From: Candidatus Aminicenantes bacterium | GTDB taxonomy: Bacteria; Acidobacteriota; Aminicenantia; Aminicenantales; UBA4085 | Assembly: GCA_016931595.1 (NCBI GenBank) | Contig: JAFGEN010000136.1 | Coordinates: forward strand, 1-56,238 | Direction of reading: 5' to 3' | Length of the DNA: 56,238 bases | Shown here: in pieces, positions 2,692-28,470 of the stretch | Position numbering within the stretch: position 1 is the stretch's first letter | How the letters are laid out: each line of letters starts with the position of its first letter | Notes under the pieces: generated by a model | Told to the model about the DNA's origin: nothing | Seen by the model: the letters and a program-made list of their open reading frames with translations, nothing else | Database searches by the model: none | Translations under genes and position numbers: made by a program

Positions 2692-2926
2692 GGTATTGCC
2701 GTCCCGTTAGAGAATTCCACAAATGCCCCGAAAGAGGGCAAAAAGATATCCACAAAGGACACATAAGGCTAAAGTGTAGATAATAATAAGAATACAGCAT
2801 ATATAATAATGGGTCGCATAACATATATTATGTAAACTAAAGAATGAAGCGGGTGTGTCTCAGGTTGTATAGCGGATTATAGGCCTCAACATCTAGTCTT
2901 GATGATGGATGGGACAGCCGGGAGAT

Positions 2927-3736: not shown

Positions 3737-3764
3737 TGTGATTGTTTCCGGTAGTCCGGATCGT

Positions 3765-4571: not shown

Positions 4572-4604
4572 TTTAAAATGCAACCTAAATAATTGACACA
4601 GACA

Positions 4605-4620
4605 TGTCGGCCGGCCGACA
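4605..4620. promoter_or_regulatory. Perfect 16-bp palindrome TGTCGGCCGGCCGACA upstream of parA (candidate operator or parS-like site)
   Basis: I read the sequence directly and checked it by reverse complement. It lies 34-49 nt upstream of the parA ATG as a GC-rich block inside an AT-rich spacer. It has the same length and TGT...ACA ends as the canonical parS TGTTNCACGTGAAACA, but a different core. Confidence 0.35.
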
Positions 4621-5059
4621 ATTTGCGTAATTAATACATAACAAACACTATATAAGGTATGATGATTAAGGATTATTTTTTAACGGGCCATGTGAGCTGA
4701 CTCAAGACAACAATGACTCGTCTGCGCTGTTGGAAGCAGTTCGCAGCAAGACAAGCACGGTTTTTGAATACAACATCCTCGATTTAAACAAAAATTCAGG
4801 CGTCGACACCCTCCGCCCCTTGCACCCGAAGCGATGTTGCGTTTTTTATCAAATAATCGAAATCGTTTTGCGGCAATGGATTTGGAGGACATATCGACTC
4901 GCAAATAATCCGGATTAAGTATCAAAAAACGATAGATAAAGTAATATTAAAGATATTTTTGAATAACGATTGATTTGGAGGGCTTCCTGGAATATCATTT
5001 TTCGGAATCAAAGTGGATAAGAATCTAGTATATATATTATAATCAACTACATAGCCAAT

Positions 5060-14400: not shown

Positions 14401-14543
14401 ATGTCTGTCGTCCGGCCGCCGGGAACGGCCGGGCCGAGCGCCCTCCAGGAGAAGGGTTTGAGCAGGTCGGTCATCTGGGCCGATGTTTGGGCCGAAGCCG
14501 AGGCGGCGAGGATGAAGAAGAGTCCTCTGAGCATGGTGCGCAT
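11436..14543 (-). CDS. Asp-box (BNR) repeat / sortilin-VPS10-like beta-propeller protein, secreted
   Basis: About 10 SxDxGxTW Asp-boxes are present (SEDAGKTWT, TIDGGKTWK, SKDGGETWT, SEDRGETWT, SWDGGRTWD, SPDRGMTWE, TRDDGKTWT, TADFGRTWT and others). The signal peptide is MRTMLRGLFFILAASASA. AAGGAG precedes the ATG at 14543. Confidence 0.85.
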   Translation of the reverse strand: MRTMLRGLFFILAASASAQTSAQMTDLLKPFSWRALGPAVPGGRTTDIEAVESQPWIVYAALGPGGVWKSINAGTSWTPVFHKEATVSVGDLAVSQSHPDIVWVGTGEATCRNSVTVGDGVYKSEDAGKTWTNMGLEETRHISRILVNRGDPNIVHVAAMGTLWSPNRERGVFKTIDGGKTWKNTLFIDENTGIADLAVDPSDSRVMFAAAYEHRRLPWFFSSGGKGSGLYRSKDGGETWTKLTKGLPEGLLGRIGVDISRSSPGVVYALVEAIDGSLFRSEDRGETWTRMCSTQIFNRVANRPFYYSQVRIDPADDLTVYVLATGLSVSRDGGAHFQGISLGTHSDHHSLWIDPANPLHLIEGNDGGIDISWDGGRTWDPVQSIDAAQVYQVGYDFGTPYHVYCGLQDNNAWGGPSASFDGGGVRNEDWFILAGGDGFFVQPDPKDPNIIYSNSQGNGITRFDRRINQAISVRPQAPLSEPPYRYNWNSPIHLSPHDSRVVYCGAQFLLRSPDRGMTWEKASPDLTTDDPEKQKDSGGPITPDNSAAESHCTITTIAESPVKPGVIWVGTDDGNIQVTRDDGKTWTNTAGAIPGLPARSWCSRIEASHFDPGTAYAAFDGHRTGDMGAYLYKTADFGRTWTSIASNLPAFGWIHVVREDVRNRNLLFAGTEFGVFASLDGGTSWFSLKNNLPTVAVHDIAVHPRDNDLIIGTHGRGVWIMDDIGFLQEMSPAVWESAGHFFSVRPAIRAHLSSVRESFSRPPYAAKNPPAGFGLTYYSKTAPKEQPKVKVNNAKGRLMAEFKLSKTAGLQRVPWDLYYIPEIEGVKAIASNAASYGVPVAPPGEYFLTVSVDGRNLEQKAVLLPDPRIPFDPSVHEAQVGAVIRASRQTAKLSATVSAVRSLRDRLPKVEAAAAKASGDAAAEASRELAAFKAVLAPLAESVLPKDILNLADRKQSLRGGTPYQVLVGISSGLPWSASRPTAEQMNMLGDMERLVADLADRVNALIKTDIPRLNEALKKAGLAETIPVPAVIKD

Positions 14544-14666
14544 CGATGATTTCTCCTTTGGGAAAACTCCCAGCCTGGATTATCCGTATGAATCATTATA
14601 GAATACGAAAAACATGAACTCGAGTTTTTCCGCTCCGCCTGATGGCGGATATTCAAGGAGGTTCGG

Positions 14667-16703
14667 ATGAATCCATTTCGCCGCATTTCGAATGTGTCTC
14701 TCTGTCTTTTTATTGCCGGCGCCTTGACGGCGACCGGTCAGACGCCTGCAGCCAAGAAGGCCGCGGGTTTTCGGCTTCCGGCCGAGATCACCGGAGCGAT
14801 GAACGTCCTGGCCGGGAAATACCCCGCCCTGGTCCGGATGGAGGTCATCGGCAAAAGCGCCGGCGGCCGGGATATTCCGATGCTGCGCCTGGCCGGCGCG
14901 GGGAAACCCGAAGGGCGTCCGGCCGTGCTCGTCGCGGCCAATGTCGAGGGCGGGCATGTCATCGGGACCGAAGCCGCCCTCCGCATGGCGGAAAAAATTC
15001 TGGATGGGTATGCCAAGGATCAAACGCTTCTCGATACCCGGACGGTTTTTATCGCTCCCCTGCTCAATCCCGACGGCATGGAGGCATATTTCGCCGCCGT
15101 CCGGACTGGACGATTCGGGAACGGCCGCTCAGTCGACGAGGACGCCGACGGGGCGATGGATGAGGATGGTTTCGAGGATTTGAACAAGGACGGAATGATC
15201 ACCCGGATGCGGGTGAAGGATCCCGAAGGCAAATGGATTCCCGACCCCAAGGAGCCGAGGCTCCTTCGTCTGGCCGACCCGAAAAAGGCAGAAAAGGGTA
15301 TTTTCAAAGTGTACACCGAGGGGACGGACAACGACGGCGACGGCCAATACAATGAAGACCCGCCCGGCGGCGTCCAACTCAATCGAAATTATCCCCACGA
15401 TTTTGAATACTTTGTGAAAACAGCCGGCCTCTATCCGGTTTCCGAGCCGGAATCGATCGCCCTCTTGAACTTCATGGAAGTCCATCCGGAGATCGGGCTG
15501 GTCCTGAGTTTTTCATCGGAAAACACGATCCTCAACCAGCAGCAAACGGCCCAGGCCAAGGCCGGCGGCGACAAGGTCCGGGTTCCAAAAGACCTGGCCG
15601 GATATATCGGCTTGGAAGCCGACCGGGATTATTCCTTGAAGGAAATCGCCGCAGCAGCCAACGCCGCCGGTCTCGGCGGGGGCATGGAAATCACCGAGGA
15701 GATGATCGCCGGCTTCCTAGGCCAGGGTCCGGCCGTCCAGATCGACCAGGCCGACCAGCCGATGTTCGAGGCCGCAGCCAAGGATTACAAGGACATGCTG
15801 AAGACGGCCAAGATGGAGGGACTCGAAAAGCATGCCCGGGGCGTGGGCAAGGGATCGTTCGCCGCCTACGTCTATTTTCAATACGGCGTTCCCGTTTTTT
15901 CGGCCGACCTCTGGCAGGTACCCGAGGCGAAGAAGGAAGAACCCGCCGACAAGATCACGGCCGATAAGCTCAAGGAAATGACCGACGAGCAGTTCCTGGC
16001 CCTGGGCGAGGAGAAAATCGCCGCTTTCCTCAAGGACGTCGGCGCGCCCCCCAACATGACGGCCAAGGTCATCATGGAAGCGGTCAAGGGAGGCAAGCTG
16101 AAAACAGCCCAGATGGCCGAGATGCTGGCGAAAATGCCCAAGAAACCCGGGGCCGACGGCGAGGATCATCCCGACGCCTATAAGCTCAAGTGGTCCGACA
16201 CGGCCCTGAAGGGAACCGGATTCGCCCCCTGGACGCCCTTCAAACATCCGCAGCTGGGGGATGTCGAAATCGGCGGTTTCGCCCCCGACTTCGGCCTCAA
16301 TCCCCCGCCCGAGGAAATGGAGGGGGCCATCGCCGCCCATGTCGACTTTTACCTCAAGCTGATGGACAACCTTCCCGTCCTTGAGATCACAGGCCTCAAG
16401 GCGGAACCGCTCGGCGGAGATACCTACAAGCTGACCGCCCTGTTCTCCAACACGGGGAAATGGCCGACCTCGACCGCTCAGGGCCGAAGGGCTCGCACGG
16501 CCTGGCCGATCCGGGTCAGCTTGGTTCTGGACAAAGCCCAAACCCTCTTTTCCGGACAGCCGACGGTCTCGATCCCCCTCCTCTCAGGCGGGGAGACGAA
16601 GAAACTGGAATGGACAATTCGTGCGGCGAAGGGCTCGAACATTACGGTCAGGGCCTGGACGCCCAAGCTGGGGACGGTCGCTTCGACCGTCGTCATGAAT
16701 TAA
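14667..16703 (+). CDS. M14 carboxypeptidase-like protein with altered zinc-ligand motif (possible pseudopeptidase)
   Basis: This is a paralog of the next gene. It has a signal peptide and an M14 scaffold (GGRDIPML...APLLNPDG). ExxH (NVEGGHV) sits where the partner has HxxE. Acidic DxDxDG-like inserts are present. The RBS is AAGGAGG. Confidence 0.72.
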   Translation: MNPFRRISNVSLCLFIAGALTATGQTPAAKKAAGFRLPAEITGAMNVLAGKYPALVRMEVIGKSAGGRDIPMLRLAGAGKPEGRPAVLVAANVEGGHVIGTEAALRMAEKILDGYAKDQTLLDTRTVFIAPLLNPDGMEAYFAAVRTGRFGNGRSVDEDADGAMDEDGFEDLNKDGMITRMRVKDPEGKWIPDPKEPRLLRLADPKKAEKGIFKVYTEGTDNDGDGQYNEDPPGGVQLNRNYPHDFEYFVKTAGLYPVSEPESIALLNFMEVHPEIGLVLSFSSENTILNQQQTAQAKAGGDKVRVPKDLAGYIGLEADRDYSLKEIAAAANAAGLGGGMEITEEMIAGFLGQGPAVQIDQADQPMFEAAAKDYKDMLKTAKMEGLEKHARGVGKGSFAAYVYFQYGVPVFSADLWQVPEAKKEEPADKITADKLKEMTDEQFLALGEEKIAAFLKDVGAPPNMTAKVIMEAVKGGKLKTAQMAEMLAKMPKKPGADGEDHPDAYKLKWSDTALKGTGFAPWTPFKHPQLGDVEIGGFAPDFGLNPPPEEMEGAIAAHVDFYLKLMDNLPVLEITGLKAEPLGGDTYKLTALFSNTGKWPTSTAQGRRARTAWPIRVSLVLDKAQTLFSGQPTVSIPLLSGGETKKLEWTIRAAKGSNITVRAWTPKLGTVASTVVMN

Positions 16704-16715
16704 GGAGGCCGCACC

Positions 16716-18479
16716 ATGAACAAGAAAACCTTCTTCACGACCATCGGGGCCGCAATGATCCTTTTGACCGGCCTCCTCGGGTTGCAACCCGGTTTACAGG
16801 CGGCTGAAAAGGTCACCCTGAGCTTCGATCACTGGTATGACAACGCGGCGATCGCCAAAGCGCTGATGGACCTGCAGGCCGCTTATCCGCAACTTTTAGC
16901 CGTAACCTCGATCGGCAAATCCGTCCAAGGCCGCGACATCTGGGCGGCCGTCATCAACAATCCCAAGACCGGGCCGGCCGACCGCAAGCCCGGCTACTAT
17001 ATCGACGGGAACATTCACGGAAACGAAATCCAGGGAGGCGAAGTCGCCCTTTACACGGTCAATTACCTGTTGAAGAATTACGGGAAGACGGAATTCGCGA
17101 CCCGGCTTGTCGACCGGCTGGTTTTTTACGTCATTCCGACGATGAATCCCGACAGCCGCGATTTTTACATCCACCAGGCCGCCGACCCCAATTCTCCCAG
17201 GACGGGCTGGTTTCCGATCGACGACGACAGAGACGGCCTCAAAGACGAGGACCCGCCCGAGGACCTGGACGGCGACGGGTCGATCACGATGATGCGAAAA
17301 CGCGACCCGCTCGGCCGCTGGAGGACCAGCCCCGACGATCCCCGCCTGATGGTCCCGGTCAAACCTGGGGAAAAGGGCGAATGGACCATGTTGGGCGAGG
17401 AAGGAATCGACAACGACGGCGACGGCCTGCTCAACGAGGACGGCCCCGGCTCATACGACATGAACCGCAATTTCGGTTACAACTGGCAGCCGGAGTATGT
17501 CCAGGGAGGAGCCGGTCCTTATCCGTTCCGCTGGCCGGAGACCAAGGCCGTCCGAGACTTCATCCTGGCCCATCCCAATATTTTGGGCGCCCAAAGCTAC
17601 CATAACTTCGGCGGGATGATTCTCCGGGGGCCGGGAGCAAAAAACCTGGGCGATTACAACCCGGCCGACATCCGCGTTTTCGACGAAATCGCCAAGCGCG
17701 GGGAAAAGATCATCCCCGGATACACGTACACCGTCGTCTATCGGGACATGTACACGGTCTACGGCGGGACCATCGACTTCATGTACGCCAACCTGGGAAT
17801 CTTCTGCTTTTCCAACGAGCTGGACACGGACCTTGTCGCCGAGATGAGCCCGAAAAAAGAGGGCGAAGACGAGGGCGTCATGGCCATGCTCGGACGGGAA
17901 GAGAACCTCGATGAGATGATTTTCCGGGACAACGTCGAAATGGGCGAACATTACACCGCCTGGAAATCCTACAAGCACCCGCTTTACGGCGACATCGAAA
18001 TCGGAGGAGCCGGCAAGTTCAGCGCCCGAGTCCCTCCCCTCTTCAAGCTGGCCGAGACATGCCACCGCAACGCCGCCTTTTCTCTTTACCACGCCGACCA
18101 GATGCCGGTCGCAGCCTTTGAGGCCATCTCGGTGAAGAAACTCGAAGGCGGCGTCTTTCAGGTCGATGTCCACGTGACCAACGCCAAGATCACTCCGACC
18201 ATTTCCGCCCAGGCCGTCAGCCAGAAACTCCACCGGCCCGACCGGATCGTCGTGGGCGGAAAGAACGCCGCCCTCCTGGCCGTCGGCGAGATACAGGATC
18301 GGTTCCTCGACCGGACCTTTCCGGTCAAATCGATCAAGAACACGTTCGATGTCGACGGAGGGGTTCCAGGGCGCGGCCGGCGGGAATTCCGGCTCCTGGT
18401 CAAAGGATCGGGAGCGGTCACTCTGACCTTCGAATCGCTGAAAGGCGGAACGGCCGAGAAGACGATCGAGCTGAAATAA
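16716..18479 (+). CDS. M14 family zinc carboxypeptidase, secreted
   Basis: HxxE zinc motif (GNIHGNEIQG), VIPTMNPDSRD, SYHNFGG, and acidic DxDxDG-like inserts. The RBS AAGGAGG lies 8 nt upstream. Confidence 0.85.
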   Translation: MNKKTFFTTIGAAMILLTGLLGLQPGLQAAEKVTLSFDHWYDNAAIAKALMDLQAAYPQLLAVTSIGKSVQGRDIWAAVINNPKTGPADRKPGYYIDGNIHGNEIQGGEVALYTVNYLLKNYGKTEFATRLVDRLVFYVIPTMNPDSRDFYIHQAADPNSPRTGWFPIDDDRDGLKDEDPPEDLDGDGSITMMRKRDPLGRWRTSPDDPRLMVPVKPGEKGEWTMLGEEGIDNDGDGLLNEDGPGSYDMNRNFGYNWQPEYVQGGAGPYPFRWPETKAVRDFILAHPNILGAQSYHNFGGMILRGPGAKNLGDYNPADIRVFDEIAKRGEKIIPGYTYTVVYRDMYTVYGGTIDFMYANLGIFCFSNELDTDLVAEMSPKKEGEDEGVMAMLGREENLDEMIFRDNVEMGEHYTAWKSYKHPLYGDIEIGGAGKFSARVPPLFKLAETCHRNAAFSLYHADQMPVAAFEAISVKKLEGGVFQVDVHVTNAKITPTISAQAVSQKLHRPDRIVVGGKNAALLAVGEIQDRFLDRTFPVKSIKNTFDVDGGVPGRGRREFRLLVKGSGAVTLTFESLKGGTAEKTIELK

Positions 18480-18574: not shown

Positions 18575-21520
18575 CTACATCAGCTTGAGGGAAATCATGA
18601 ATTCGTTCCGGCCTGAAAAGCCTTTTTCATAAGCTCGGGCATAACCGAATGAAAAAGTCGAATTCATCAGGGAAAACAGGACGATCCGGAAATCGAGCTG
18701 GGCCCCGAACCCGACCAGCTTCCGGCTGAAGGCCGAGTCGTCGAAATCGGTGATGATCCCCGAGGCGAAGACGGCCAGCCGGGCCCAGGTGCAGTAGAGG
18801 TCCATGAACCCGAATCGGCGGAAGGTCACTGGCGGAAGGGTCCATTCGATGGTCCCTTTGGCGAAGTTTCGGCCGCCCAACTCGTTGATGTCCAGGCCGG
18901 GGAAACTGTAGTATTCGCGGTATCGTTTTTCCGCAAGGTAATCGACCCAATTGTTTCCGAATCCGCCGAAGAAGAAACGGACGAAGTTGTTCTCCCGGTC
19001 GCCGAAAGACTGTCCGACGGCCGTCCTCAGCCAGATCGAGGAATGATTGACCGGCAGGGCCAGCCCGTAGTCGAACCGCCCGAAGATCCGGGGATAGAGC
19101 TTCCCGTTGACGTAGTTGGCCCGGGCAAACACATGCGCCCGGTAGCCTTTTTCCTCGTCGACCGCCCCGAGCGAGCGCCGGACGAAATTGTATTTCAGGC
19201 CGACCCGGGCCGAAAGCAGCTTGTCGTATGTCGCGTCGACGTTCTGGTAATCGGGCAACCGGTCGAGGCCGGCATAACCGGCAAGGCCGAACTCGAAGGT
19301 CAGGTTGCGGGGAGGGTCGTAGATCAGGTCCCGGGAATAATCGAGGCCGAGCGAATAGCCCTTCCGGCCGAACATCGTCGGGCCGAACAGGTCGTAAAAG
19401 TTGGCGTTGTTGTACGTCGCCGAGACCGTCCAGTTCCAGTAATGATAGACCAGCCCCAGGTGGAGCCGTTCCTTGGCCGGAAGGACGCTCGACGGGCTGT
19501 AGGACGCGGACACGTCGAATCCGTGGTACCGAAGGGCGTTTCGGAATTCCATCCGGACGCCCACGGCCAGGGTGTCCTTATAGCCCTCGAGAATCGGGTA
19601 GGCCGAATTCAATCCGATGTCACGGAACGAGCTGTAGGGGTCGATCGATTCGGTTAGGGATTCGATCGGGACGTCGGCCGGCGAGCCGGCCATCCAATCC
19701 TTGACCTCGGGGTATCGGTTGACCACTTCTTGGCCCAGGAAACGGACGGCGTTGACGTCCTGAAGGACTTTTTGTTCGATGAAACCGGGGAGGAACCCGT
19801 CCTTCGTATATTTGTAAACGAGGAGAGACCGGTCGTTGACGGGGAGCGGCCGGAAAAAGCCCGTTTCCGCGTTGCTCAAGACCTCCATCGTCTTTCGGGC
19901 CAGGTCGTAACGGAGAATGTTGGACACGCCGGTGTAATAGGAGGAGCCGTACAAGGCGGCGCCGTCCTCGGAAAAGCGAAAATCGGCCGGCGAGTCCGTC
20001 CCAAAATCATGGAGCTTTTCGGGCGAATAGGTACCCTTGAGCAGGTCGGCCGTGTTCATCCTGACGAGGGCTTGGTTTCCGGACACGTCGGAGACCGCCG
20101 CGGAGATCCAGGCTCCATCGGGCGACATATCGAGGCCGTACATATCCGTGTAGTAGTCGAACCCATACACGGCCGTCCAGTCGGTGTACGGAGGATCGAT
20201 CCGGACGAGGGTCGACAGGCCGATATTGTGGCGAATGCCCCAGAGGCTCTTGTCGACCGGGTTGAAAACAAGGTCTCCGATCCGGGCGTCGGTCAGAAGC
20301 TTTTCCGACGTTCCGGAACCCAGGTGATAGACACGAATGTCCCGGTAGGTGCTGTTGTCCGTGGTGAAGAACAGGCGGCCGCCGGACCGGTCGAAAGCCA
20401 GGGAGCAGACCGAGTAGAGCGAGGCCCCCTTGATGTCGCAGAGGCGCTTCATTTCGCCCGTTCCGACGTCAAATTCGGCCAGATGGGCGACCTGTCCGGG
20501 ATAATTGACTCCGGCGTACACCTTCCCCCTTTGGGCATCGTAGAATCCCCGGGACACGGAGCCCAAACGCCGGTCGGTCAGGGGCCGAAATTCGGTCACG
20601 GGGAATTTCCGGATGGTCTCCAGGTTTTCGGTCTGCCAGGTCCGTTCGGACTTCAGCCAATCGGACCATTCGTCCACCACCCGGCGGCCGAAGGTCTGCC
20701 TGAAGGAGGCCGAAAACGAGCTTTTGCTGTCTTTTTCCACGGAAACCCAATCGATGACTTTTTGCGGCCCGTATTTGACCGCCAGATGGGAAAAGAAGCG
20801 GGCGCCGTACATATAGGACAGGGCTCCGATTTGAAAATCGACCGCCGTTCCCTCGGATTCCAGGCTGAGGGCGTCGTACAGAACACCGTTTTCCAGGACC
20901 GCGGTCCGGAAGGCCATTTCATCATAGGCCCCCAAGGATCGGCCCAGTCCCCCGTTCATCCAAGTCTCCATGAAGACGGCGATCCCCTCCAGGTACCAGC
21001 GGGGCGAATACATTCTTGGGCTGGTCAAATAGGTGTAGAACATCGAGAGCGGATTTTCCTTGCTGGCTCCGACTTTTCCGAAAAAGATCTTTCGGAAAAA
21101 CGGGGCCGAGCCGAAGGGCTTGTCCATGGTCACGACGTGGACGAGCTCGTGGTTCATGATCAGGCTCATCCGCTCGTAGCCCGACATCATGTCGTAGGCA
21201 TGGTCGAAGGGCGAAAGCTCGAGAAAAACCAGGTTGCGGGGGACGGCCGTGGCCCCGCCGTTCCCCCAGTCGGCGAAATCCTCCACGAACACCGCCGTCC
21301 TTTCGGCCGGCCTGTAATTGAAGAATGTTTTGTAGTAGTCCATGGTGTTGACGAAGGACCGGGCCAGGTGCTGGACGACATACTCGTGGGCCTGGCTGTA
21401 GTAGACCAGGTTGAGGCCGGGGACTTTGAAGCTGAAAAGCGTCTGGCCGGAAAGGCCGGAGATCGACACCGCGAACATGGCCAGGAACACGAGGGGCGAC
21501 GGGCGTCGGGGAGATCTCAT
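18575..21520 (-). CDS. Secreted HExxH zinc metalloprotease-like protein with beta-propeller-like middle and beta-rich C-terminal region
   Basis: HExxH motif (MNHELVHV) with a downstream YLEGIAVFME. The signal peptide MRSPRRPSPLVFLAMFAVSISGLSG begins at the internal ATG 21520, which is preceded by GAGGAGGAGG. The middle has TolB-like repeats (RLFFTTDNS...IRVYHL). The longer ORF to 21637 runs into the upstream terminator. Confidence 0.7.
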   Translation of the reverse strand: MRSPRRPSPLVFLAMFAVSISGLSGQTLFSFKVPGLNLVYYSQAHEYVVQHLARSFVNTMDYYKTFFNYRPAERTAVFVEDFADWGNGGATAVPRNLVFLELSPFDHAYDMMSGYERMSLIMNHELVHVVTMDKPFGSAPFFRKIFFGKVGASKENPLSMFYTYLTSPRMYSPRWYLEGIAVFMETWMNGGLGRSLGAYDEMAFRTAVLENGVLYDALSLESEGTAVDFQIGALSYMYGARFFSHLAVKYGPQKVIDWVSVEKDSKSSFSASFRQTFGRRVVDEWSDWLKSERTWQTENLETIRKFPVTEFRPLTDRRLGSVSRGFYDAQRGKVYAGVNYPGQVAHLAEFDVGTGEMKRLCDIKGASLYSVCSLAFDRSGGRLFFTTDNSTYRDIRVYHLGSGTSEKLLTDARIGDLVFNPVDKSLWGIRHNIGLSTLVRIDPPYTDWTAVYGFDYYTDMYGLDMSPDGAWISAAVSDVSGNQALVRMNTADLLKGTYSPEKLHDFGTDSPADFRFSEDGAALYGSSYYTGVSNILRYDLARKTMEVLSNAETGFFRPLPVNDRSLLVYKYTKDGFLPGFIEQKVLQDVNAVRFLGQEVVNRYPEVKDWMAGSPADVPIESLTESIDPYSSFRDIGLNSAYPILEGYKDTLAVGVRMEFRNALRYHGFDVSASYSPSSVLPAKERLHLGLVYHYWNWTVSATYNNANFYDLFGPTMFGRKGYSLGLDYSRDLIYDPPRNLTFEFGLAGYAGLDRLPDYQNVDATYDKLLSARVGLKYNFVRRSLGAVDEEKGYRAHVFARANYVNGKLYPRIFGRFDYGLALPVNHSSIWLRTAVGQSFGDRENNFVRFFFGGFGNNWVDYLAEKRYREYYSFPGLDINELGGRNFAKGTIEWTLPPVTFRRFGFMDLYCTWARLAVFASGIITDFDDSAFSRKLVGFGAQLDFRIVLFSLMNSTFSFGYARAYEKGFSGRNEFMISLKLM

Positions 21521-21610
21521 GAAACCTCCTCCTCTCTCTCCTTGTGGAGTGATCTCAGAGTATCCGAGGCGGCGGGTATTTTCAAGAGGCGGGCCTGGAT
21601 GATACACGGG

Positions 21611-21652
21611 AAAAAAAGCCCCCCGGAAGGAGCCCAAGTTCCCTCCGGGGGG
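21611..21652 (-). terminator. Rho-independent terminator of the sigma/anti-sigma/repeat-protein operon
   Basis: The minus strand reads CCCCCCGGAGGG-aacttgggct-CCTTCCGGGGGG followed by C-TTTTTTT. This gives a 12-bp stem with one G-U pair. It lies 54-95 nt after the stop at 21706. Confidence 0.7.
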
Positions 21653-21705
21653 TTGTTTACCCGACTCTCCGGGATTTTTATCTCATCCCGGAACGTCGCC
21701 CGTCG

Positions 21706-23886
21706 TCACCAGTAATTGGCGAAATCGCCGCTTTTGACCATGTTGGCGAAGTTGCCGTCCTTGACCAGGTTGGCGAAATTGGCGTCCTTCATGAGATTGG
21801 AGAAAGAGCCGTCCTTCATCAAGTTGGCGAAGTTGCCGTCCTTGACCAGGTTGGCGAAATTGCCGTCCTTCATCAGGTTGGTGAAGCTTCCGTCTTTGAG
21901 GAGGTTGGCAAAGCTTCCGTCTTTGACCAGGTTGGCGAAGTTGGCGTTATTGACCAGGCCGCGGAAGCTTTCGACCTTGACCAGGTTGGCGAAATTCCCG
22001 CCATTCACGAGGAGGATGAGGTTGGCGAATCCCCCGTTTTTCACCATGTTGGCCAGGCTGCCGTTCTTCATCAGGTTGGCGAAATTGGCGTCTTTCATCA
22101 GATTGGCGAAGGACGGGTCTTTGACCAGGTTGGCCAGCCCGGGGTCCTTTGTCAGGTTGGCGAAGTTCGCATTTTTTTGCAGATTGGCGAAATCCCCGTT
22201 CTTGACCGCGTTGGCGAAGTTTGAGTCTTTGGCCAAGTTGGCGAAGTTGGGATCCTTGACCAGGTTGGAAAAATTCGGATCTTTGACCAGGTTGGCGAAG
22301 GCGTCGTTTTTCAACAGGTTGGTGAAGCCCGAGTCTTTCGTCAAATTGGCGAAATCCCCGTTGTTCACGAGCCAGACGCAGTTGGCGAATCCGCCGCTTT
22401 TGAACAGGTTGGAGAAAGAATCGGATTTAAAGAGATTGGCGAAGTTTGAGTCCTTCATCAAGTTGGCGAAAGCCGGATCCTTGACCAGATTGGCGTAATT
22501 CGGATTGTTCTCGAGATTGGCGAAATCTCCGCCCTTGACCGCGTTGGCGAACGAAGGATCCTTGGCCAGGTTGGCGAAGCCGGGATCCTTCATCAAGTTG
22601 GCGAAATTGGCGTCATTGAGGAGATTGGAGAAATTCCCGTCTTTCAACAAATTGGCGAAGTCGGCATCCTTGAAGAGATTCGCGAAGTTGCCGTTTTTGA
22701 CCAGGCTGGCGAAGTTCCCGTCCTTGACCAGGTTGGCGAAGTTCCCGTCCTTCATCAGGTTGGCGAAATTTCCATCCTGAATGAGAGGAATAAAATTCGC
22801 GCTCGGCCCGCCTTTCGTCAGATTTGCGAAATTTTCGTCCTTCACGAGGTTTGCGAAGGATGGATCCTTGACCAGGTTGGCGAAATCGGGCGTTTTGGCC
22901 CACCAGATGATGCTATTGGCGTACTCTCCGCTCTTGAAGAGATTGGCGAAATTCGCATCCTTCATGATGTTGGCGAACTCCGGCTTCGAGAAGAGATTCG
23001 CGAAGTCGCCGTTCTTGACCAGGTTGGCGTAATTCGGGTTGTTCTGGAGATTGGCGAAGTCGCCGTTCTTGACCGCATTGGCGAAGGCCGGGCCTTTGAC
23101 CAGATTGGCGAAGCTTGGATCTTTGACCAGGTTGGCGAAGGAGGGATCCTTGGCCAGGTTGGCGAAATCGCCGTTCTTCACCAATTCGATGATGACATTC
23201 GCCTGCGGACCGCTTTTGAGGAAAGCGGCGAAATTCTCGTTTTTGATCAAATTCGCGAAGCCGGCGTCATTGAAGAGATTGGCGAAATCGCCGTTTTTCA
23301 ACAGGTTCGCGAAATTCCCGTTTTTCACCAGGTTGGCAAAATTCGGGTCGTTCATCAGATTGGCGAACTCGGGCCGCAGGCAGGCATTGGAGAAATTCCC
23401 GCCCTGGATCAGGTTGGCGAAGTCCGGGTCCTTCATCAGGTTGGCAAAGCCTTCGTCCTTCACCAGGTTGGCGAATTCGGGCCGCAGCAGGAAATTGGCG
23501 AAGTCGCCGCTCTTGACCAGATTGGCCATCGACCCGTCCTTGAACAGCCCGGCGAAGTGTTCGTCCTTTACCAGGTTGGCGAAGTCCCCGTTCTTCAGCA
23601 AATTGGCGAAGTTCGGGTCCTCCATGGCCTTCTGGAAGCGGACGTTCCGGATCATATTCTGGACGTTCGGATCCTGGAGGATCCGGACGACATCCTCCTT
23701 GGTCAGGACCACATCCTTGGCCGTGACTCCACCGGCCCGGTGCCGGTCGGCCTTGGTAATGGTCCCGGCGACCTGGCCCTCGTCGGCCTTCTTCTTCAAT
23801 ACGCCGGGATTGAAAACAAACACCAGGCCGACGGCGATGACGACGATCGCCGCTCCGAACGAGAACATCTTCTGTTTTTGGGTCAT
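21706..23886 (-). CDS. Membrane-anchored nonapeptide-repeat protein (about 71 x D-[GP]-[NS]-F-A-N-L-[VM]-K); family unknown
   Basis: An uninterrupted 726-aa ORF starts at ATG 23886, preceded by GGGAGG. The N-terminus has one hydrophobic helix (FSFGAAIVVIAVGLVFVF). The remainder parses completely into 9-aa units. The opposite strand is broken into four ORFs. Confidence 0.85.
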   Translation of the reverse strand: MTQKQKMFSFGAAIVVIAVGLVFVFNPGVLKKKADEGQVAGTITKADRHRAGGVTAKDVVLTKEDVVRILQDPNVQNMIRNVRFQKAMEDPNFANLLKNGDFANLVKDEHFAGLFKDGSMANLVKSGDFANFLLRPEFANLVKDEGFANLMKDPDFANLIQGGNFSNACLRPEFANLMNDPNFANLVKNGNFANLLKNGDFANLFNDAGFANLIKNENFAAFLKSGPQANVIIELVKNGDFANLAKDPSFANLVKDPSFANLVKGPAFANAVKNGDFANLQNNPNYANLVKNGDFANLFSKPEFANIMKDANFANLFKSGEYANSIIWWAKTPDFANLVKDPSFANLVKDENFANLTKGGPSANFIPLIQDGNFANLMKDGNFANLVKDGNFASLVKNGNFANLFKDADFANLLKDGNFSNLLNDANFANLMKDPGFANLAKDPSFANAVKGGDFANLENNPNYANLVKDPAFANLMKDSNFANLFKSDSFSNLFKSGGFANCVWLVNNGDFANLTKDSGFTNLLKNDAFANLVKDPNFSNLVKDPNFANLAKDSNFANAVKNGDFANLQKNANFANLTKDPGLANLVKDPSFANLMKDANFANLMKNGSLANMVKNGGFANLILLVNGGNFANLVKVESFRGLVNNANFANLVKDGSFANLLKDGSFTNLMKDGNFANLVKDGNFANLMKDGSFSNLMKDANFANLVKDGNFANMVKSGDFANYW
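21709..23673 (-). repeat. Degenerate 27-bp tandem repeat array (about 71 units) encoding the nonapeptide repeats
   Basis: The period is visible directly, with units such as caggttggcgaaattgccgtccttcat and close variants. Identical 40-mers occur at 21742-21781 and 21823-21862, 81 nt (3 units) apart. Confidence 0.9.
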
Positions 23887-23917
23887 GATTTCCTCCCTTG
23901 ACCTTTGTTCATAGCGC

Positions 23918-24727
23918 TTATTTCTTTCCTTCGTTCATGCCGATTTGATGCTCTTTTCGGACCGGCCAGGCAAATGACCGGGAAAACAGCATTTCGCCGT
24001 CCGCGTTGGCCTGGACATCGAGGGCGGTCGGCGGATGACCCGGCGTCCGGAAGACGACGAGAAAGCCGTGAGAACCCGACACCCGCACGACGATTTTTCC
24101 GGGCATGATCTCGACGCCGCCGGTTTCGCCCGAAAGACGGCGTATGGTGTCGAACCGCATCTCCTCCGGGGAGAAACTCAGAGTGACGAGGACCTCCCTC
24201 TCCGTCAGGCCGCGCAGGCCGACGGCCAGCATGCGCTCGCCCCGGAGGACATCCACTGTTTGCTCGATTCCGGTCGACTCCCAGCCGGCCGTTTCCATAG
24301 GACTCAAGCTTTCGGCGTCCATGACGGTCCCGGCCAACTGACGGAGGTCCCATCCGGAATCCTTGACCACTCCGAACTTCGAAACCAGGAGAAGCCCCAG
24401 GCCCAGACCCAGGCCAAGGCAGAAAAACAGCGCATACTTCAACTTGATGGGTTCAAACAGGGGAGCCGGGATCCCCCTCTTTTTGACGAAATCGTTCTCG
24501 GGAATCCCCGGGCGCTGGAGAAAGGCCAGAATTTTCATCTTGAAAAACGGTCCGGGATCCGGGACGGGAGCGGTCCGCAGGAGTTCGATCGTTTCCGAGA
24601 GCTCGGCCGTATAGGTCTTGGCTTCGTTGTTACCGGCGAGGATTCGGGCCAAGGTTCGGCTTTCTTCGGCCGAATTGGTCCCATCCGATTCTTGGTTGAT
24701 CAGGCGGATGATTTCGGCCTCAAGCAT
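23918..24727 (-). CDS. Single-pass anti-sigma factor-like membrane protein
   Basis: The start overlaps the ECF sigma stop by 8 nt. The N-terminal roughly 50 aa resemble an anti-sigma domain (IIRLINQESDGTNSAEESRTLARIL) but lack the HxxxCxxC zinc motif. There is one TM helix (ALFFCLGLGLGLGLLLV) and an extracytoplasmic domain of about 150 aa. Confidence 0.6.
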   Translation of the reverse strand: MLEAEIIRLINQESDGTNSAEESRTLARILAGNNEAKTYTAELSETIELLRTAPVPDPGPFFKMKILAFLQRPGIPENDFVKKRGIPAPLFEPIKLKYALFFCLGLGLGLGLLLVSKFGVVKDSGWDLRQLAGTVMDAESLSPMETAGWESTGIEQTVDVLRGERMLAVGLRGLTEREVLVTLSFSPEEMRFDTIRRLSGETGGVEIMPGKIVVRVSGSHGFLVVFRTPGHPPTALDVQANADGEMLFSRSFAWPVRKEHQIGMNEGKK

Positions 24728-25265
24728 GGCGGAGTCCCCCGTCGCGGACGAGGATTTCCCTCAGCCGGTGTCGGGCTTCGAAAAGGCGGGATTTCACCTT
24801 GTGTTCCGGCATACCGAGCAGCTCCCCGATTTCCTTGTAGCTGAGCCCGTCAATACTCAAGGCGAGGAGAGCGCGCCGCCGGGGATGCAAGGACTCCATG
24901 GCCCGATTGATCCGGGCGTTCAATTCGCCGATCTCGCACAGGTCTTCGGGGTCGAGGACGGCGCTTTCCAAAACGGGCGGAGGAACACTCCGACGGTTCC
25001 TCTTTTCGACGAAATTCAGCGATTCGTTGACTGCGATCCGGTACAGCCAGCTGAAAAATTTGTGTCCGGGATCGTATGAAGACAGGCGGCTGAAGGCTTT
25101 GATGAAAACACCCTGGGCCACATCCCGGGCGTCCTCGGCGTTGCGTACGATACGGTAGGCCAAGCTCATCACCTGCTTCTGGTACCGGATAATGATCGAT
25201 TCAAAGGCGTCCACATCTCCCTCCAGGCAATCGCGGACGGCTTGAAGGTCTCCTTGTTCATACAT
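24720..25265 (-). CDS. ECF-type RNA polymerase sigma-70 family factor
   Basis: Region 2 (FESIIIRYQKQVMSLAYRIVRNAEDARDVAQGVFIKAF...FFSWLYRIAVNESLN) and region 4 (LSYKEIGELLGMPEHKVKSRLFEARHRLR) are both present. The internal ATG at 25265 gives a typical 181 aa. Confidence 0.9.
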   Translation of the reverse strand: MYEQGDLQAVRDCLEGDVDAFESIIIRYQKQVMSLAYRIVRNAEDARDVAQGVFIKAFSRLSSYDPGHKFFSWLYRIAVNESLNFVEKRNRRSVPPPVLESAVLDPEDLCEIGELNARINRAMESLHPRRRALLALSIDGLSYKEIGELLGMPEHKVKSRLFEARHRLREILVRDGGLRHA

Positions 25266-25414
25266 TATTACAGGCGATCGGCCCCGAAGTTGGATTTGGC
25301 CTGTTTTTGGCCCGTCGGGGGAATGACGAACGAACGAAGGAGGCAAGAATCCACACCGGGAAATCCTCCCTTCCTTCCCGGCCGGAAGGCTCTCTCCTCA
25401 TGGTTGATGCCCCG

Positions 25415-25444
25415 AATATACGTTGTCCCAAAGGCGAATGTCAA
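25415..25444 (-). promoter_or_regulatory. Candidate sigma-70-type promoter for the ECF operon (TTGACA-N18-TATATT)
   Basis: The minus-strand hexamers sit at 25439-25444 and 25415-25420. This is about 150 nt upstream of the sigma start. The match is by sequence only. Confidence 0.35.
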
Positions 25445-25479
25445 GACGGCCGACCGGTCCTGAGCGCGGGCATAGTCTC

Positions 25480-25508
25480 TTGAGAACATCGGGGAAATGA
25501 CATAGAAT
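25480..25508 (+). promoter_or_regulatory. Candidate sigma-70-type promoter for the PrsW-family gene (TTGAGA-N17-TAGAAT)
   Basis: Hexamers sit at 25480-25485 and 25503-25508. The -10 ends 14 nt before ATG 25523, which implies a very short leader. Confidence 0.3.
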
Positions 25509-25522
25509 GCATATCGCTTTTC

Positions 25523-26542
25523 ATGTGGATAACGATTGGACTAAAAATCCTGATCGGGTTTTTCCCGGTCTTGTTGTTTCTCCTGGCCTTGGTCTTCATG
25601 GACAGCTACAAACTGGTTCGGATGAAGGCGCTTCTTCCGGCCATCGCCGGCGGGGCGGCCGCAGCCGGGCTGAGCCTGCTTCTGAATTCCGGCCTGATCG
25701 GATTTTTCCAGGGGGATTTCGCTTTCTACTCCCGCTATGTCGCGCCCCTGGTCGAGGAATCGCTGAAAGCGGCCGTTCTGGTTTATTTTTTCCGGACCAA
25801 CCGGGTCGGTTTCCTGGTCGATGCGGCGATCCTGGGATTCGCGGCCGGGGCCGGATTCTCGATCGTCGAGAACATGCATTTTCTCAAGGCGGCCGTCGGG
25901 GCGGACATCGTCGTTTGGGCGGTTCGTGGCCTGGGAACGGCGATGATGCACGGCGGAACGACGGCTGTCTTCGCCTTCCTGACTAAGGCTCTCTCCGACC
26001 GGCGGACAAAGAATCATCCCTGGCCGGCCGCGGTCCCCGGCCTGGCCCTGGCCTTCACCGTTCATTCCGCCTTCAACCATTTTTTGCTGCCGCCTGTTGC
26101 GGCTGCGGCTGTGATGATGGCCGTGCTTCCCCTGGTGGCCGTCAATGTCTTCATCGCCGGCGAGCGGAGCACCCGGAAATGGCTGGAAATCGGCTTCGAT
26201 ACCGATGTCGAACTTCTCGGGTTGATCAACGCCGGCCGGTTTTCCACCAGTAAAATCGGCCGTTACGTTCTTTCCCTGAAGGACCGCTTTTCCGGGGAAG
26301 TCATGGCCGACCTATTCTGTCTCATCCGGATCCATTTGGAGTTATCCATCGGCGCCAAGGGGATTCTTCTGATGCGGGAAGCCGGCCTACCGGTCGTCCA
26401 GAACCCCGGGTTCCGGGAGAAATTCAGAGAGTTGGAATACCTTCAGAAAAGCGTCGGCCCCACGGGAATGATGGCCGTTTCACCCATCCTCCACCGCAGC
26501 CGCCGGGATTTATGGGGGTTGCACATGCTGGGAGGACAATAA
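25523..26542 (+). CDS. PrsW-family intramembrane metalloprotease with about 135-aa C-terminal cytoplasmic extension
   Basis: Polytopic N-terminal half carries EExxK (PLVEESLKAA), GFAAGAGFSIVEN, MMHGGTT and HxxxN (VHSAFNH) motifs in PrsW/CAAX-protease order. Confidence 0.72.
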   Translation: MWITIGLKILIGFFPVLLFLLALVFMDSYKLVRMKALLPAIAGGAAAAGLSLLLNSGLIGFFQGDFAFYSRYVAPLVEESLKAAVLVYFFRTNRVGFLVDAAILGFAAGAGFSIVENMHFLKAAVGADIVVWAVRGLGTAMMHGGTTAVFAFLTKALSDRRTKNHPWPAAVPGLALAFTVHSAFNHFLLPPVAAAAVMMAVLPLVAVNVFIAGERSTRKWLEIGFDTDVELLGLINAGRFSTSKIGRYVLSLKDRFSGEVMADLFCLIRIHLELSIGAKGILLMREAGLPVVQNPGFREKFRELEYLQKSVGPTGMMAVSPILHRSRRDLWGLHMLGGQ

Positions 26543-26549
26543 CCCGGGT

Positions 26550-28112
26550 TCAGGACGTCAGGGCGTTCAAGGCCACGGCAACGATGGTGACATCATCGGG
26601 AGGGGGGGTGCCTCCGGCAAACACGCGGACGGCTTCCCGCATCCCCTCGACCATTTTTTGCGGGCTCGTTCCGAGACCGGAGTCGAGCGTCCGATTGATT
26701 CGGGATTCGGTGAATAGCTCCAGAGAGGCGTTGGTTGCCTCCGAAACGCCGTCTGAGAACAAAAAGACGGCTTCCCCCGGACGGAGGCGGCCGGTGGTTG
26801 TCGAGTAGCCGCATCCTTCCAGGATTCCGAGGAACGTCCCCGTCGGCCCGGGCAGCGTCCTGTAGAGTCCTGATCCATCCGAGACGAATGGGGGGGGGTG
26901 TCCGCCGTCCGCGTAGGCGATTTCCCCGGTCCGGAGGTTCAGGACCAGGAAAAAAACGGTCACGAACATCATCATCTCGTTATCCGGTATAAGGGCGGCG
27001 TTCAGGCGCCTTAAGACCTCTCCCGGGGAATGGCCGCGCATCGCCTCCGTCTTGAGAAGCGTTTTACAGATGGCCATGAACAGGGCGGCCGGAACTCCCT
27101 TGCCGGAAACGTCGCCGATGGCCACGCCGACGCGGTCGTCGTCGATGAGAAAAAAATCGTAAAAATCACCCCCGACCTCCTTGGCCGGCTCCATGAGGGC
27201 GAAAATCTCGAACTCCGGCCGGTTCGGGAACGGCGGGAAAACCCGGGGAAGCATCGCCGCCTGAATATCCCGGGCGATCCGCAACTCGCTTTGGATTCGC
27301 TCCTTGGCCTCCGTCTCAGCCTTGAGGTTTTCGATGAATCGCTGAACGCAAAGATGGACGATCTTGAAGGCCATGTCGGAGTCGCGGCTGAACAGGCGGG
27401 TGACCTCCTCCTTGTCGATCGAATAGACGACGCAATTCTCCTCGCAGAGGGCGGATGCGGTCCGGATGTGGAAGGGGGACAGAAGCCCCATTTCTCCGAT
27501 GACATCGCCGGTCCGGACGATCTTTTCGATTTCAGGAAGCCGGATCGAACCGGAGGCGATGTAGAACATTTTTCCGGCCGGGTCGCCCTTCTGGAAAAGG
27601 ACGCTTCCTTTCGCGTGGGTTTCCCTGGTCATTGTTTCGAGGGGAAATCCCGATTCGGACATCCCCTCCGCCGTCGGCCGGATGCGGGCGGCCGGGCCGC
27701 CGGGCCGGGGAACAAACACCAGGGTCAGGATGTTTTTCCCGCCTTCCCGCCGCCAAATCGTTTCCTCGGTCAGCTGGTCGATGAAATAAATTCCCAGGCC
27801 TCCGACCTTGCGCTCCTCGAGCCCGGACCGAAGGTCCGGAGCGGCCTTCGAACGGGGATCGAAGGGAACACCCCTGTCCTCGATGTCGATTTCGACCCGA
27901 CCGGCGACGGTCCCTGTGCGCCATCGGACCTCGATTTCCCCGGATGCTTGGGGGTAGGCGTGGTGAATGATATTGACGACGGCTTCCTCGACGGCCAGCT
28001 GGATTTCCTTGATTTGGAGCGGGGAAAAGCCGTCTTCACGGCCTCGGACCTCAACGAAATCGAGGTACTGTTCCAGGTATTCGAGACGGGCGGGCAAACG
28101 CAGCGGAAGCAT
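26550..28112 (-). CDS. Fusion protein: RsbW/SpoIIAB-like serine kinase (HATPase_c_2), cyclic-nucleotide-binding domain, and PP2C/SpoIIE phosphatase
   Basis: Kinase N-box (EEAVVNIIHHAY) and G-boxes (DRGVPFDP, GGLGIYFI). cNMP phosphate-binding cassette (GDVIGEMGLL...RTASA). SpoIIE motifs (EVGGDFYDF, GDVSGKGVPAALFMA, DGGH, FSDGVSE). ATG at 28112 is preceded by GGAGG. Confidence 0.85.
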   Translation of the reverse strand: MLPLRLPARLEYLEQYLDFVEVRGREDGFSPLQIKEIQLAVEEAVVNIIHHAYPQASGEIEVRWRTGTVAGRVEIDIEDRGVPFDPRSKAAPDLRSGLEERKVGGLGIYFIDQLTEETIWRREGGKNILTLVFVPRPGGPAARIRPTAEGMSESGFPLETMTRETHAKGSVLFQKGDPAGKMFYIASGSIRLPEIEKIVRTGDVIGEMGLLSPFHIRTASALCEENCVVYSIDKEEVTRLFSRDSDMAFKIVHLCVQRFIENLKAETEAKERIQSELRIARDIQAAMLPRVFPPFPNRPEFEIFALMEPAKEVGGDFYDFFLIDDDRVGVAIGDVSGKGVPAALFMAICKTLLKTEAMRGHSPGEVLRRLNAALIPDNEMMMFVTVFFLVLNLRTGEIAYADGGHPPPFVSDGSGLYRTLPGPTGTFLGILEGCGYSTTTGRLRPGEAVFLFSDGVSEATNASLELFTESRINRTLDSGLGTSPQKMVEGMREAVRVFAGGTPPPDDVTIVAVALNALTS

Positions 28113-28137: not shown

Positions 28138-28470
28138 TCAGAACCGGCCGTGGGCCGACTCGACCGAATCCTCGACGGCAAAGACTGAGCCGAACCCGGA
28201 AATGGTGAACACTTCCTTGACGACATCCTTGACGCAGGCGATGACAACCTTGCCTTTCTTCGCCGAGAGCTTCTTGCCAAGGATCAGGAGGCTTCGGAGG
28301 CCGGCACTGCTGATGTACTCCAGCCCGGTGAAGTTCAAGATGAAATTCGCCTCCCCGGCGGACAACCACTCGTCGCATTTGCGGTCGAATTCCTGCGAGG
28401 AGACGGCGTCCATCCGGCCTTCCACGGCGACCACAAGACGCCCATTTTCGTTTTTTCCTTCGATTTTCAT
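28138..28470 (-). CDS. STAS-domain anti-sigma-factor antagonist
   Basis: 110 aa with a SpoIIAA/RsbV-like core (LNFTGLEYISSAGLRSLL) carrying a phosphorylatable Ser at the conserved position. It lies 25 nt upstream of the kinase-phosphatase fusion. Confidence 0.85.
   Translation of the reverse strand: MKIEGKNENGRLVVAVEGRMDAVSSQEFDRKCDEWLSAGEANFILNFTGLEYISSAGLRSLLILGKKLSAKKGKVVIACVKDVVKEVFTISGFGSVFAVEDSVESAHGRF

Follow-up and report, generated by a model that had tools for sequence, protein, structure and literature searches.

A probable SigW/RsiW/PrsW-type sigma factor switch and its conserved partner genes in a Candidatus Aminicenantes bacterium

Genes for a sigma factor of the extracytoplasmic function (ECF) type, an anti-sigma factor, a repeat protein (here called REP) and a membrane protease of the PrsW family lie together at positions 21611-26542 of contig JAFGEN010000136.1 of a Candidatus Aminicenantes bacterium. 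The 56 kb of this contig that were analysed are referred to below as the window. This locus is probably the Aminicenantes version of a cassette that is found in many phyla and is built around a switch of the SigW/RsiW/PrsW type, operating by the mechanism proposed below. SigW activation in Bacillus has PrsW as its textbook site-1 protease, and a preliminary description of this DNA had drawn an analogy between the four genes and that system. Sequence and profile comparisons indicate that the sigma factor, the anti-sigma factor and PrsW are true homologues of SigW, RsiW and PrsW, so that the analogy to Bacillus subtilis corresponds to real homology. The preliminary description omitted two groups of genes that are conserved with the system across phyla, namely the gene of a 981-amino acid protein (O981), which is the closest neighbour of PrsW, and the STAS, RsbW and PP2C genes of a partner-switch module. 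With these partners the cassette is apparently undescribed: full-text literature searches returned no account of it, a result that does not amount to proof, and the main text of the paper that reclassified ECF sigma factors is silent on any STAS or PrsW context.

Homology of the sigma factor, anti-sigma factor and protease

The sigma factor gene (24720-25265, minus strand) encodes an RpoE/SigW-like protein of 181 amino acids. Its only domains are sigma-2 and sigma-4 (Pfam Sigma70_r2, 2.6e-16; Sigma70_r4_2, 3.9e-13), which, at a length of ~180-200 amino acids, is the architecture of ECF (group 4) factors, and the TIGR02937 sigma70-ECF model matches it with 101 bits against a cut-off of 42.9. 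The best NCBIfam matches are RpoE (106 bits) and SigW (~105 bits), both short of the equivalog cut-offs of 209-236, and the relatives of solved structure in the PDB are AlgU, sigmaE and SigW (E = 1e-22 to 4e-24). ECF factors typically have their cognate anti-sigma gene adjacent, and here the two open reading frames (ORFs) overlap by 8 nt. This overlap, the positions of the sigma, anti-sigma and repeat genes and the 31-nt spacer ahead of the repeat gene are all as previously described.

The anti-sigma gene (23918-24727, minus strand) encodes a predicted single-pass protein with an RsiW-like N-terminal domain and a beta-rich C-terminal domain. Pfam and NCBIfam gave no match to the single sequence, and a PDB sequence search with the full protein returned nothing significant. 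However, a profile built from 22 N-terminal domains of the family matches RsiW (5wuq_C) with E = 4.1e-10. Profile positions 4-77 align to RsiW residues 5-78, which is the whole domain, and the next match in the PDB is RskA at 0.027, leaving RsiW as the sole significant one. The region that carries the zinc ligands differs, reading HLETCEKC in RsiW and yLaenpeA in the family consensus, and weak zf-HC2 matches occur in only five of the 22 family members. The N-terminus of the window protein has neither His nor Cys and hence no HxxxCxxC zinc motif, as had been noted previously. Its transmembrane segment spans residues 94-112, and a G-T-V motif follows 20 residues beyond it. The same combination of a transmembrane segment and G-[TS]-[ILMV] is present in all 25 anti-sigma factors compared, with the motif 12-22 residues past the membrane and its copies sharing one alignment column.

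The protease gene (25523-26542, plus strand) begins 257 nt from the sigma factor start and is divergent from it. PF13367 matches residues 37-206 of the protein with 62.7 bits against a cut-off of 23.5. Sixteen PrsW homologues share invariant E78-E79-x-x-K82, F112/E116, H143 and H181-x-x-x-N185, the residues that define the M82 family. The preliminary description was thus correct in recognizing a PrsW-family protease by its EExxK and HxxxN motifs at this distance upstream, and the C-terminal tail that it put at about 135 amino acids measures ~133 (residues ~207-339). The divergent orientation that it reported also stands for the window, but it is a peculiarity of the Aminicenantes lineage, as the genes are co-directional elsewhere.

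The PrsW tail is a conserved domain that appears specific to this subfamily. Full-length PrsW including the tail has more than 2154 homologues, in which the tail is conserved as strongly as the protease core. The tail alone as a query retrieved 490 representative clusters, and in the 150 best-scoring matches listed it is always the C-terminus of proteins of at most ~345 amino acids (typically ~330-345), the shorter ones looking like fragments. In an AF2 model with a mean confidence score (pLDDT) of 81, seven long helices are followed by the helical C-terminal domain. A Foldseek comparison of the tail with PDB folds gave no match. The core fold resembles APH-1, TMEM147 and Rce1 at weak E-values (Foldseek found none at E <= 0.001), and this likeness fits the relation reported in PMC3482391, in which PrsW domains are proposed to be peptidases that release exported proteins. 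By the positive-inside rule, the tail would be cytoplasmic and the catalytic residues would lie near the periplasmic face, where the active site would reach the G-T-[IV] segment of the anti-sigma factor.

Conserved partners and their linkage across phyla

A pattern search of genome contigs gave 599 matches, 555 of which encode a PrsW of this subfamily, and 80 loci (designated by L numbers) from more than ten phyla were retained. Their sources include Aminicenantes, KSB1, Bacteroidota, Ignavibacteriales, Gemmatimonadota, Zixibacteria, Krumholzibacteriia, Calditrichia, Acidobacteriota, Gamma- and Betaproteobacteria, and others. Gene content was determined by searching the window proteins against six-frame ORFs, and counts refer either to the 64 loci with at least 3.1 kb upstream of PrsW or to the 45 loci with at least 6.6 kb. 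As a single query, the anti-sigma sequence found no match in a first scan of genome contigs, and it has only four relatives (57-70% identity) among 5.8 billion proteins. We rejected gene linkage in these four relatives as functional evidence because the entire 20-kb neighbourhood is collinear there, which in such close relatives reflects shared ancestry rather than functional linkage, and relied on the cross-phylum analysis instead.

The usual arrangement is a co-directional series in the order PP2C, RsbW, STAS, sigma, anti-sigma, REP, terminator, O981 and PrsW. The O981 gene is directly 5' of PrsW in 56 of 64 loci and is found somewhere in the locus in 62. Among the 45 longer loci, the sigma gene is present in 39, STAS in 38 and RsbW/PP2C in 39, and in 33 of 41 loci from other phyla the sigma gene has a STAS gene fewer than 300 nt 5' of it. 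In the lineage of the window, PrsW and the partner-switch genes are on the other side of the sigma gene, a rearrangement that is specific to Aminicenantes. Sigma, anti-sigma, repeat protein and PrsW therefore co-occur in more than ten phyla, as the preliminary description would predict, and a PrsW of this kind is not simply found regardless of the sigma factor.

REP is encoded at 21706-23886 (minus strand) and consists of an N-terminal transmembrane anchor, a membrane-adjacent module (AGTITKADRHRAGGVTAKDVVL) and ~70 nonapeptide units with the consensus D-[GP]-[ND]-F-A-N-L-[VML]-K. F[AST]N anchors number 57, 44 of the 56 spacings between them are exactly nine residues, and the DNA has a period of 27 nt. 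Neither an RTX-like beta-roll (GGxGxDxUx) nor a pentapeptide solenoid (A(D/N)LxX) fits this consensus, and both assignments were rejected. Searches of REP against Pfam and NCBIfam gave only summed sub-significant repeat artefacts (STI1 DP, TPR_END_plus, MunI and VipD) with no single significant stretch, and a PDB sequence search gave no significant match.

The membrane-proximal part of REP is well conserved. Orthologues carry the module PPxxE/DxxGTIGxxxKYRxEQIxxxDVxL beside the membrane, and all 33 combine a transmembrane segment with G-[TA]-[IV]. The repeat units vary by phylum, with 9 amino acids (SEAFRNALN, DENFSMLAA), 12 (LEKMPVLERAQT, ATLQEKAAIMER) or 8 (AAKSAADS). Their sequences are unrelated, although they are rich in helix-favouring residues and remain hydrophobic at positions 4, 7 and 8. 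Given a unit that is specific to the lineage and may be 8, 9 or 12 residues long, and with nothing that indicates a fibre, the earlier proposal of a nonapeptide-repeat fibre as the output of the system is not supported.

In at least four lineages, an RsiW-like anti-sigma domain is fused in frame with the REP anchor, the G-T-I-G module and the repeats (L009:4874-7690, minus strand; L012:437-1720, plus; L029:5303-6784, plus; L070:862-2331, plus), and in these loci the anti-sigma factor and the repeat protein are one protein. L009, which comes from a close relative, has the FA(N/G)L nonapeptides seen in the window. None of the four loci has a separate anti-sigma factor bearing the usual C-terminal domain. 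REP thus shares its anchor and G-T-[IV] motif with the anti-sigma factor and is in places fused to an anti-sigma domain, which is at odds with its earlier portrayal as the sole non-regulatory cargo of the operon.

O981 is a predicted envelope protein encoded at 18575-21520 (minus strand), with a signal peptide, an HExxH domain resembling the MA clan, a TolB-like beta-propeller and a C-terminal beta-barrel. More than 2913 homologues at 49% identity or above were retrieved across phyla, all without a name, and 28 sequences show no variation at H124, E125 and H128 (the HExxH motif) or at the downstream residues E178 and E185. An AF2 model (pLDDT 78) comprises the signal peptide, a mixed helical domain, the propeller and a barrel of ~16-17 strands (residues 625-980). 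Foldseek matches the propeller to TolB (E = 1e-10). With the whole chain it yields propeller matches only, and the protease and barrel domains are therefore not classified by fold. Matches to Pfam Peptidase_MA_2, PD40 and Omp85_2 recur, all below threshold. Peptidase_MA_2 has a cut-off of 32.4 bits and reaches 26.6, in a single homologue, and Omp85_2 scores 16-18 bits against a cut-off of 23.1; these scores make the protease and barrel assignments provisional. A PDB sequence search with O981 gave nothing significant. O981 recalls BepA/BAM, TolB and the Omp85 family in its putative periplasmic zinc-metalloprotease motif, TolB-like six-bladed propeller and predicted C-terminal barrel, but it has all three domains in one polypeptide, reaches no Pfam family at threshold, and yielded no POTRA, TPR or TPS-type secretion domain.

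Two observations concern the O981 gene and its surroundings. The same Aminicenantes locus was recovered twice (L001:13172-16117 and L006:3110-6052), and in the ENA contig the gene is broken into four ORFs, whereas the metagenome-assembled genome (MAG) in GenBank has it whole, a discrepancy indicative of indel errors in the assembly of one record. In the window, the gene is adjoined at 11436-18479 by two tandem M14 carboxypeptidase genes and a gene for a 1035-amino acid BNR/sortilin-type protein, which are kept in Aminicenantes relatives (L001-L004).

The partner-switch module of the window consists of two genes on the minus strand. The first (28138-28470) encodes a STAS-domain protein (1.4e-19) that resembles RsbV, an anti-anti-sigma factor. 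The second (26550-28112) encodes a fusion of an RsbW-like kinase domain (HATPase_c_2, 1.3e-24), a cyclic-nucleotide-binding domain (cNMP_binding, 2.6e-14) and a PP2C/SpoIIE phosphatase domain (SpoIIE, 6.6e-48). The STAS, HATPase_c_2 and PP2C domains are those of RsbV, RsbW and RsbU and all score above threshold; the ISSAG serine motif of the STAS protein is a putative phosphorylation site. RsbU/RsbV/RsbW modules have the same three domains, which in other phyla of our sample are encoded directly 5' of the sigma gene. Unlike in those modules, the adjoining sigma factor is an ECF (group 4) factor already paired with a membrane anti-sigma factor, and the window has a fused kinase and phosphatase, with the cyclic-nucleotide-binding domain between them.

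Promoters and transcription units

A SigW-type ECF promoter motif (TCCAACTT-N13-TGTAAT) abuts the ATG of the sigma gene at 25263-25294 (minus strand). It scores 26.7 bits with a position weight matrix, and the runner-up site in the 56 kb scores 10.9. The consensus at sigma genes is CCAACTTTT-N12/13-(T)GTA(A/T)TT (in short form CCAACTT-N13-GTA), and AAC-N17/18-GTA occurs upstream of 42 of 45 sigma genes. An AAC -35 element combined with a (C)GT -10 element is characteristic of ECF promoters. The SigW promoter consensus is TGAAAC-N16-CGTA, to which the AAC-N17-GTA geometry is equal. Across 1.15 Mb of loci, 38 sites of the motif are at sigma starts, and nearly all of the 37 others are just 5' of REP, where they are followed by leaders of an ordinary 46-111 nt with ribosome-binding sites. 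A motif of the ECF-type promoter that the preliminary description had proposed to look for is therefore present at the sigma gene, and a second copy stands directly 5' of the repeat gene in most phyla. In the window, no second motif was found 5' of REP, the O981 gene or PrsW. With the second copy lost, REP would here be transcribed as part of the operon of the sigma and anti-sigma genes. A third strong copy (31 bits) was observed in the MAG of a gammaproteobacterium, just 3' of PrsW (L067:11039-11066, plus strand), with no clear ORF within 250 nt.

The distance between the motif and the start codon is short. The sigma ATG is 3 nt past the GTA in 31 of ~40 loci and 7-8 nt past it in six; the window provides an example of the closer spacing (25263-25271), as do most sigma starts of L007-L085. 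The first base of codon 3 is a purine in 28 of 29 loci (manual count), conservation of the protein sets in at about codon 5, and no alternative start was seen.

The spacer between the sigma gene and PrsW also contains the two back-to-back sigma-70-like promoters of the preliminary description. The distal promoter of the sigma operon (TTGACA-18-TATATT, 25415-25444, minus strand) has 11 of 12 matches, and that of PrsW (TTGAGA-17-TAGAAT, 25480-25508, plus strand) has 10 of 12. A scan of 6 kb found three such sites where 1.6 were expected, so a match to the promoter consensus is weak evidence by itself; both promoters are kept in Aminicenantes relatives, in which CTTGACA-N17-GTATATT is found in L001-L009. 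Upstream of the O981 gene, a weak TTGAAA-17-TACTCT is readable by eye only and was not among the sites reported by the promoter scan. Between the distal promoter and the ECF motif, the leader at 25300-25410 (minus strand) contains a conserved CATGAGGAGAGAG element that is common to L001-L003 and that in the window is followed by a CCTTCCGGCCGGGAAGG hairpin.

At the other end of the unit, the 31-nt spacer between the anti-sigma gene and REP carries the expected GGGAGG ribosome-binding site, 6 nt ahead of the ATG. An intrinsic terminator (21610-21652, minus strand) follows the repeat gene. Its stem, at 21652-21619, has 13 pairs (10 of them G-C) rather than the 12 bp previously given and is followed by T7; the folding energy is -35.7 kcal/mol (z = -3.8 relative to shuffles). 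Outside Aminicenantes, 20 of 28 loci have a hairpin with a T-run after REP, as compared with 0-1 in shuffles. Since the terminator is conserved in this position across phyla, the earlier view that the unit is closed and ends with the repeat gene is right and holds for most loci examined. We had considered the conserved O981 gene to contradict a closed operon, and withdrew this objection in view of the conservation of the terminator itself.

Neither an Rfam nor a tRNA scan gave a match in the window. A patch at 2001-6000 has a GC content of 0.45-0.47, as compared with ~0.60 elsewhere, and could represent acquired DNA or be close to the origin of replication. It contains genes for ParB (2927-3838) and ParA (3765-4583), the start of an amino-acid permease gene (5060-6436) and part of an unassigned ORF of 557 amino acids (1018-2691). 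A gene of the class A beta-lactamase family (10391-11446, plus strand; Beta-lactamase2, 1.1e-57) adjoins genes for an MTTB methyltransferase and a RACo-type corrinoid activation protein.

A proposed mechanism and its alternatives

By analogy with B. subtilis, we infer that an envelope signal would lead PrsW to cut the anti-sigma factor in its periplasmic membrane-adjacent segment, at or near G-T-[IV]. O981 may assist or gate this cleavage. Further degradation of the anti-sigma factor would then free the sigma factor, which would transcribe REP and perhaps its own operon too. Because REP carries the anchor and motif of the anti-sigma factor, it might exert feedback, either by competing as a substrate or by acting as a shield. 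The partner-switch module would contribute a cytoplasmic input, here one that binds cyclic nucleotides, and could act on the sigma factor or on the PrsW tail.

Several observations weigh against this mechanism. The nearest neighbour of PrsW is the O981 gene and not the anti-sigma gene, and the trio of REP, O981 and PrsW persists at four loci where no sigma factor was detected (L010, L021, L034 and L063). At one of these, on a Gemmatimonadota chromosome (L021:3121-9852), an ECF motif is followed by genes for a 1135-amino acid repeat protein with QVIPALEKE-type units, O981 and PrsW, and the lack of a detectable sigma gene in the 10 kb upstream implies that the core trio is separable from the sigma factor. 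In the 1.15 Mb of loci, no ECF motif was found upstream of the O981 gene or PrsW, and no site-2 protease (M50/S2P) was found among the window ORFs scanned. With a gap of 3 nt between GTA and ATG, a canonical transcription start would be inside codon 3, which leaves autoregulation from the site at the sigma gene unproven. Finally, a periplasm-facing active site of PrsW is a prediction of the positive-inside rule, and the assignment of this protease to this substrate is likewise a prediction.

A broader version of the mechanism is possible, although we regard it as doubtful. O981 in the outer membrane and PrsW in the inner membrane, the latter with a regulatory cytoplasmic tail, might form a hitherto undescribed, envelope-spanning proteolytic signalling machine that jointly processes anchored proteins marked by G-T-I-G, namely the anti-sigma factor and the fast-evolving amphipathic REP. 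Competition for the proteases would set sigma activity and thereby keep REP under homeostatic control, and the STAS/RsbW/PP2C switch, which would be cyclic-nucleotide-sensitive here, would gate the protease tail or the sigma factor, resulting in a two-input (AND-type) ECF switch.

Among the alternatives, a rather unlikely one is that REP is an RseB-like shield or co-sensor rather than a substrate. Its amphipathic repeats would bind the anti-sigma factor, lipids or unfolded envelope proteins and so block or expose the cleavage site, and induction of REP by the sigma factor would then constitute negative feedback. The order of sigma, anti-sigma and REP mirrors that of rpoE-rseA-rseB in E. coli, and REP is the sole local gene besides the sigma gene that has an ECF motif. 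The hydrophobic positions kept across differing repeat units are also consistent with a shield, as are the fusions, which would place it in one chain with the anti-sigma domain. However, REP is related to RseB neither in sequence nor in fold, and a shield would need neither the anti-sigma-type anchor nor the G-T-[IV] motif. Moreover, the fused forms lack the anti-sigma C-terminal domain to which REP would bind.

We give little credence to an envelope machine in which PrsW frees REP from its membrane anchor and O981 processes it or exports it through its barrel. The sigma pair would then only set the supply of REP, and the anti-sigma factor would imitate a substrate to report demand. REP, O981 and PrsW are indeed the most constant core of the cassette and survive where no sigma factor was found, and O981 unites an HExxH domain, a TolB-like propeller and a barrel with weak similarity to Omp85_2. 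The strong variation of the repeats between phyla is as expected of an exposed or loosely constrained product, and the proposal that PrsW domains release exported proteins (PMC3482391) fits as well. Yet the similarity to Omp85_2 is below threshold, no POTRA or TPS-type secretion domain was found with it, REP has no known export signal, and the terminator divides REP from the O981/PrsW pair. In addition, homology to RsiW argues that the anti-sigma factor is a genuine PrsW substrate.

The reading put forward in the preliminary description, a self-contained three-gene operon gated by PrsW whose sole purpose is a structural nonapeptide fibre, with O981 and the partner-switch genes as unrelated neighbours, now appears very improbable. 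It agrees with the operon structure of the window, the conserved terminator after REP and the restriction of the ECF motif to sigma and REP, but it is contradicted by the gene order across phyla, in which the O981 and STAS/RsbW/PP2C genes are conserved with the system, as well as by the lack of conservation of the nonapeptide unit and the fusion of REP to an anti-sigma domain in several lineages. That the adjacency of PrsW is coincidental or a matter of co-regulation only, with another protease performing site-1 cleavage, is scarcely credible: in B. subtilis, prsW is not known to be linked to sigW-rsiW, so that linkage is not needed for function, and PrsW is not under the ECF motif, but the linkage is kept across more than ten phyla despite rearrangements (Aminicenantes, L031), and all three partners are homologous to a proven triad of protease, substrate and sigma factor.

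The preferred reading, a SigW/RsiW/PrsW-type switch within a larger cassette, can be compared with two known systems. In common with SigW/RsiW/PrsW of B. subtilis, the cassette has an ECF sigma factor of the RpoE/SigW type, an anti-sigma factor with an N-terminal domain homologous to that of RsiW, one transmembrane segment and an extracytoplasmic part, a PrsW with all four catalytic motifs, and the AAC-N17-GTA promoter geometry. Unlike the B. subtilis system, it occurs in hosts with outer membranes, its PrsW is linked to the sigma pair and has the extra helical tail, its anti-sigma factor is without zinc ligands, it has four extra conserved partners (REP, O981, STAS and RsbW/PP2C), and no site-2 protease is encoded near it. 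With the E. coli system of RpoE, RseA and RseB plus DegS and RseP, it shares a sigmaE-like sigma factor, an operon in which a third, periplasm-exposed protein joins the sigma factor and the membrane anti-sigma factor, a -35 element of the AACTT type, and an envelope setting with outer-membrane components. However, the anti-sigma factor is RsiW-like and not RseA-like, REP is unrelated to RseB, and the linked protease is PrsW rather than a PDZ serine protease of the DegS type.

The cassette bears on the signal sensing of PrsW and on the occurrence of its pathway beyond Firmicutes, in that three homologues of the Bacillus proteins are kept together, with four more conserved partners, across more than ten phyla that are mostly uncultured. 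Three conserved families or domains in it are nameless, namely O981, the repeat protein and the PrsW tail. The cassette also offers a candidate recognition motif (G-T-[IV]), a defined promoter motif, natural fusions of anti-sigma factor and repeat protein, and candidates for an outer-membrane input and a cytoplasmic input. It would further join an ECF sigma factor with a partner switch of the RsbV/RsbW type, which is uncommon.

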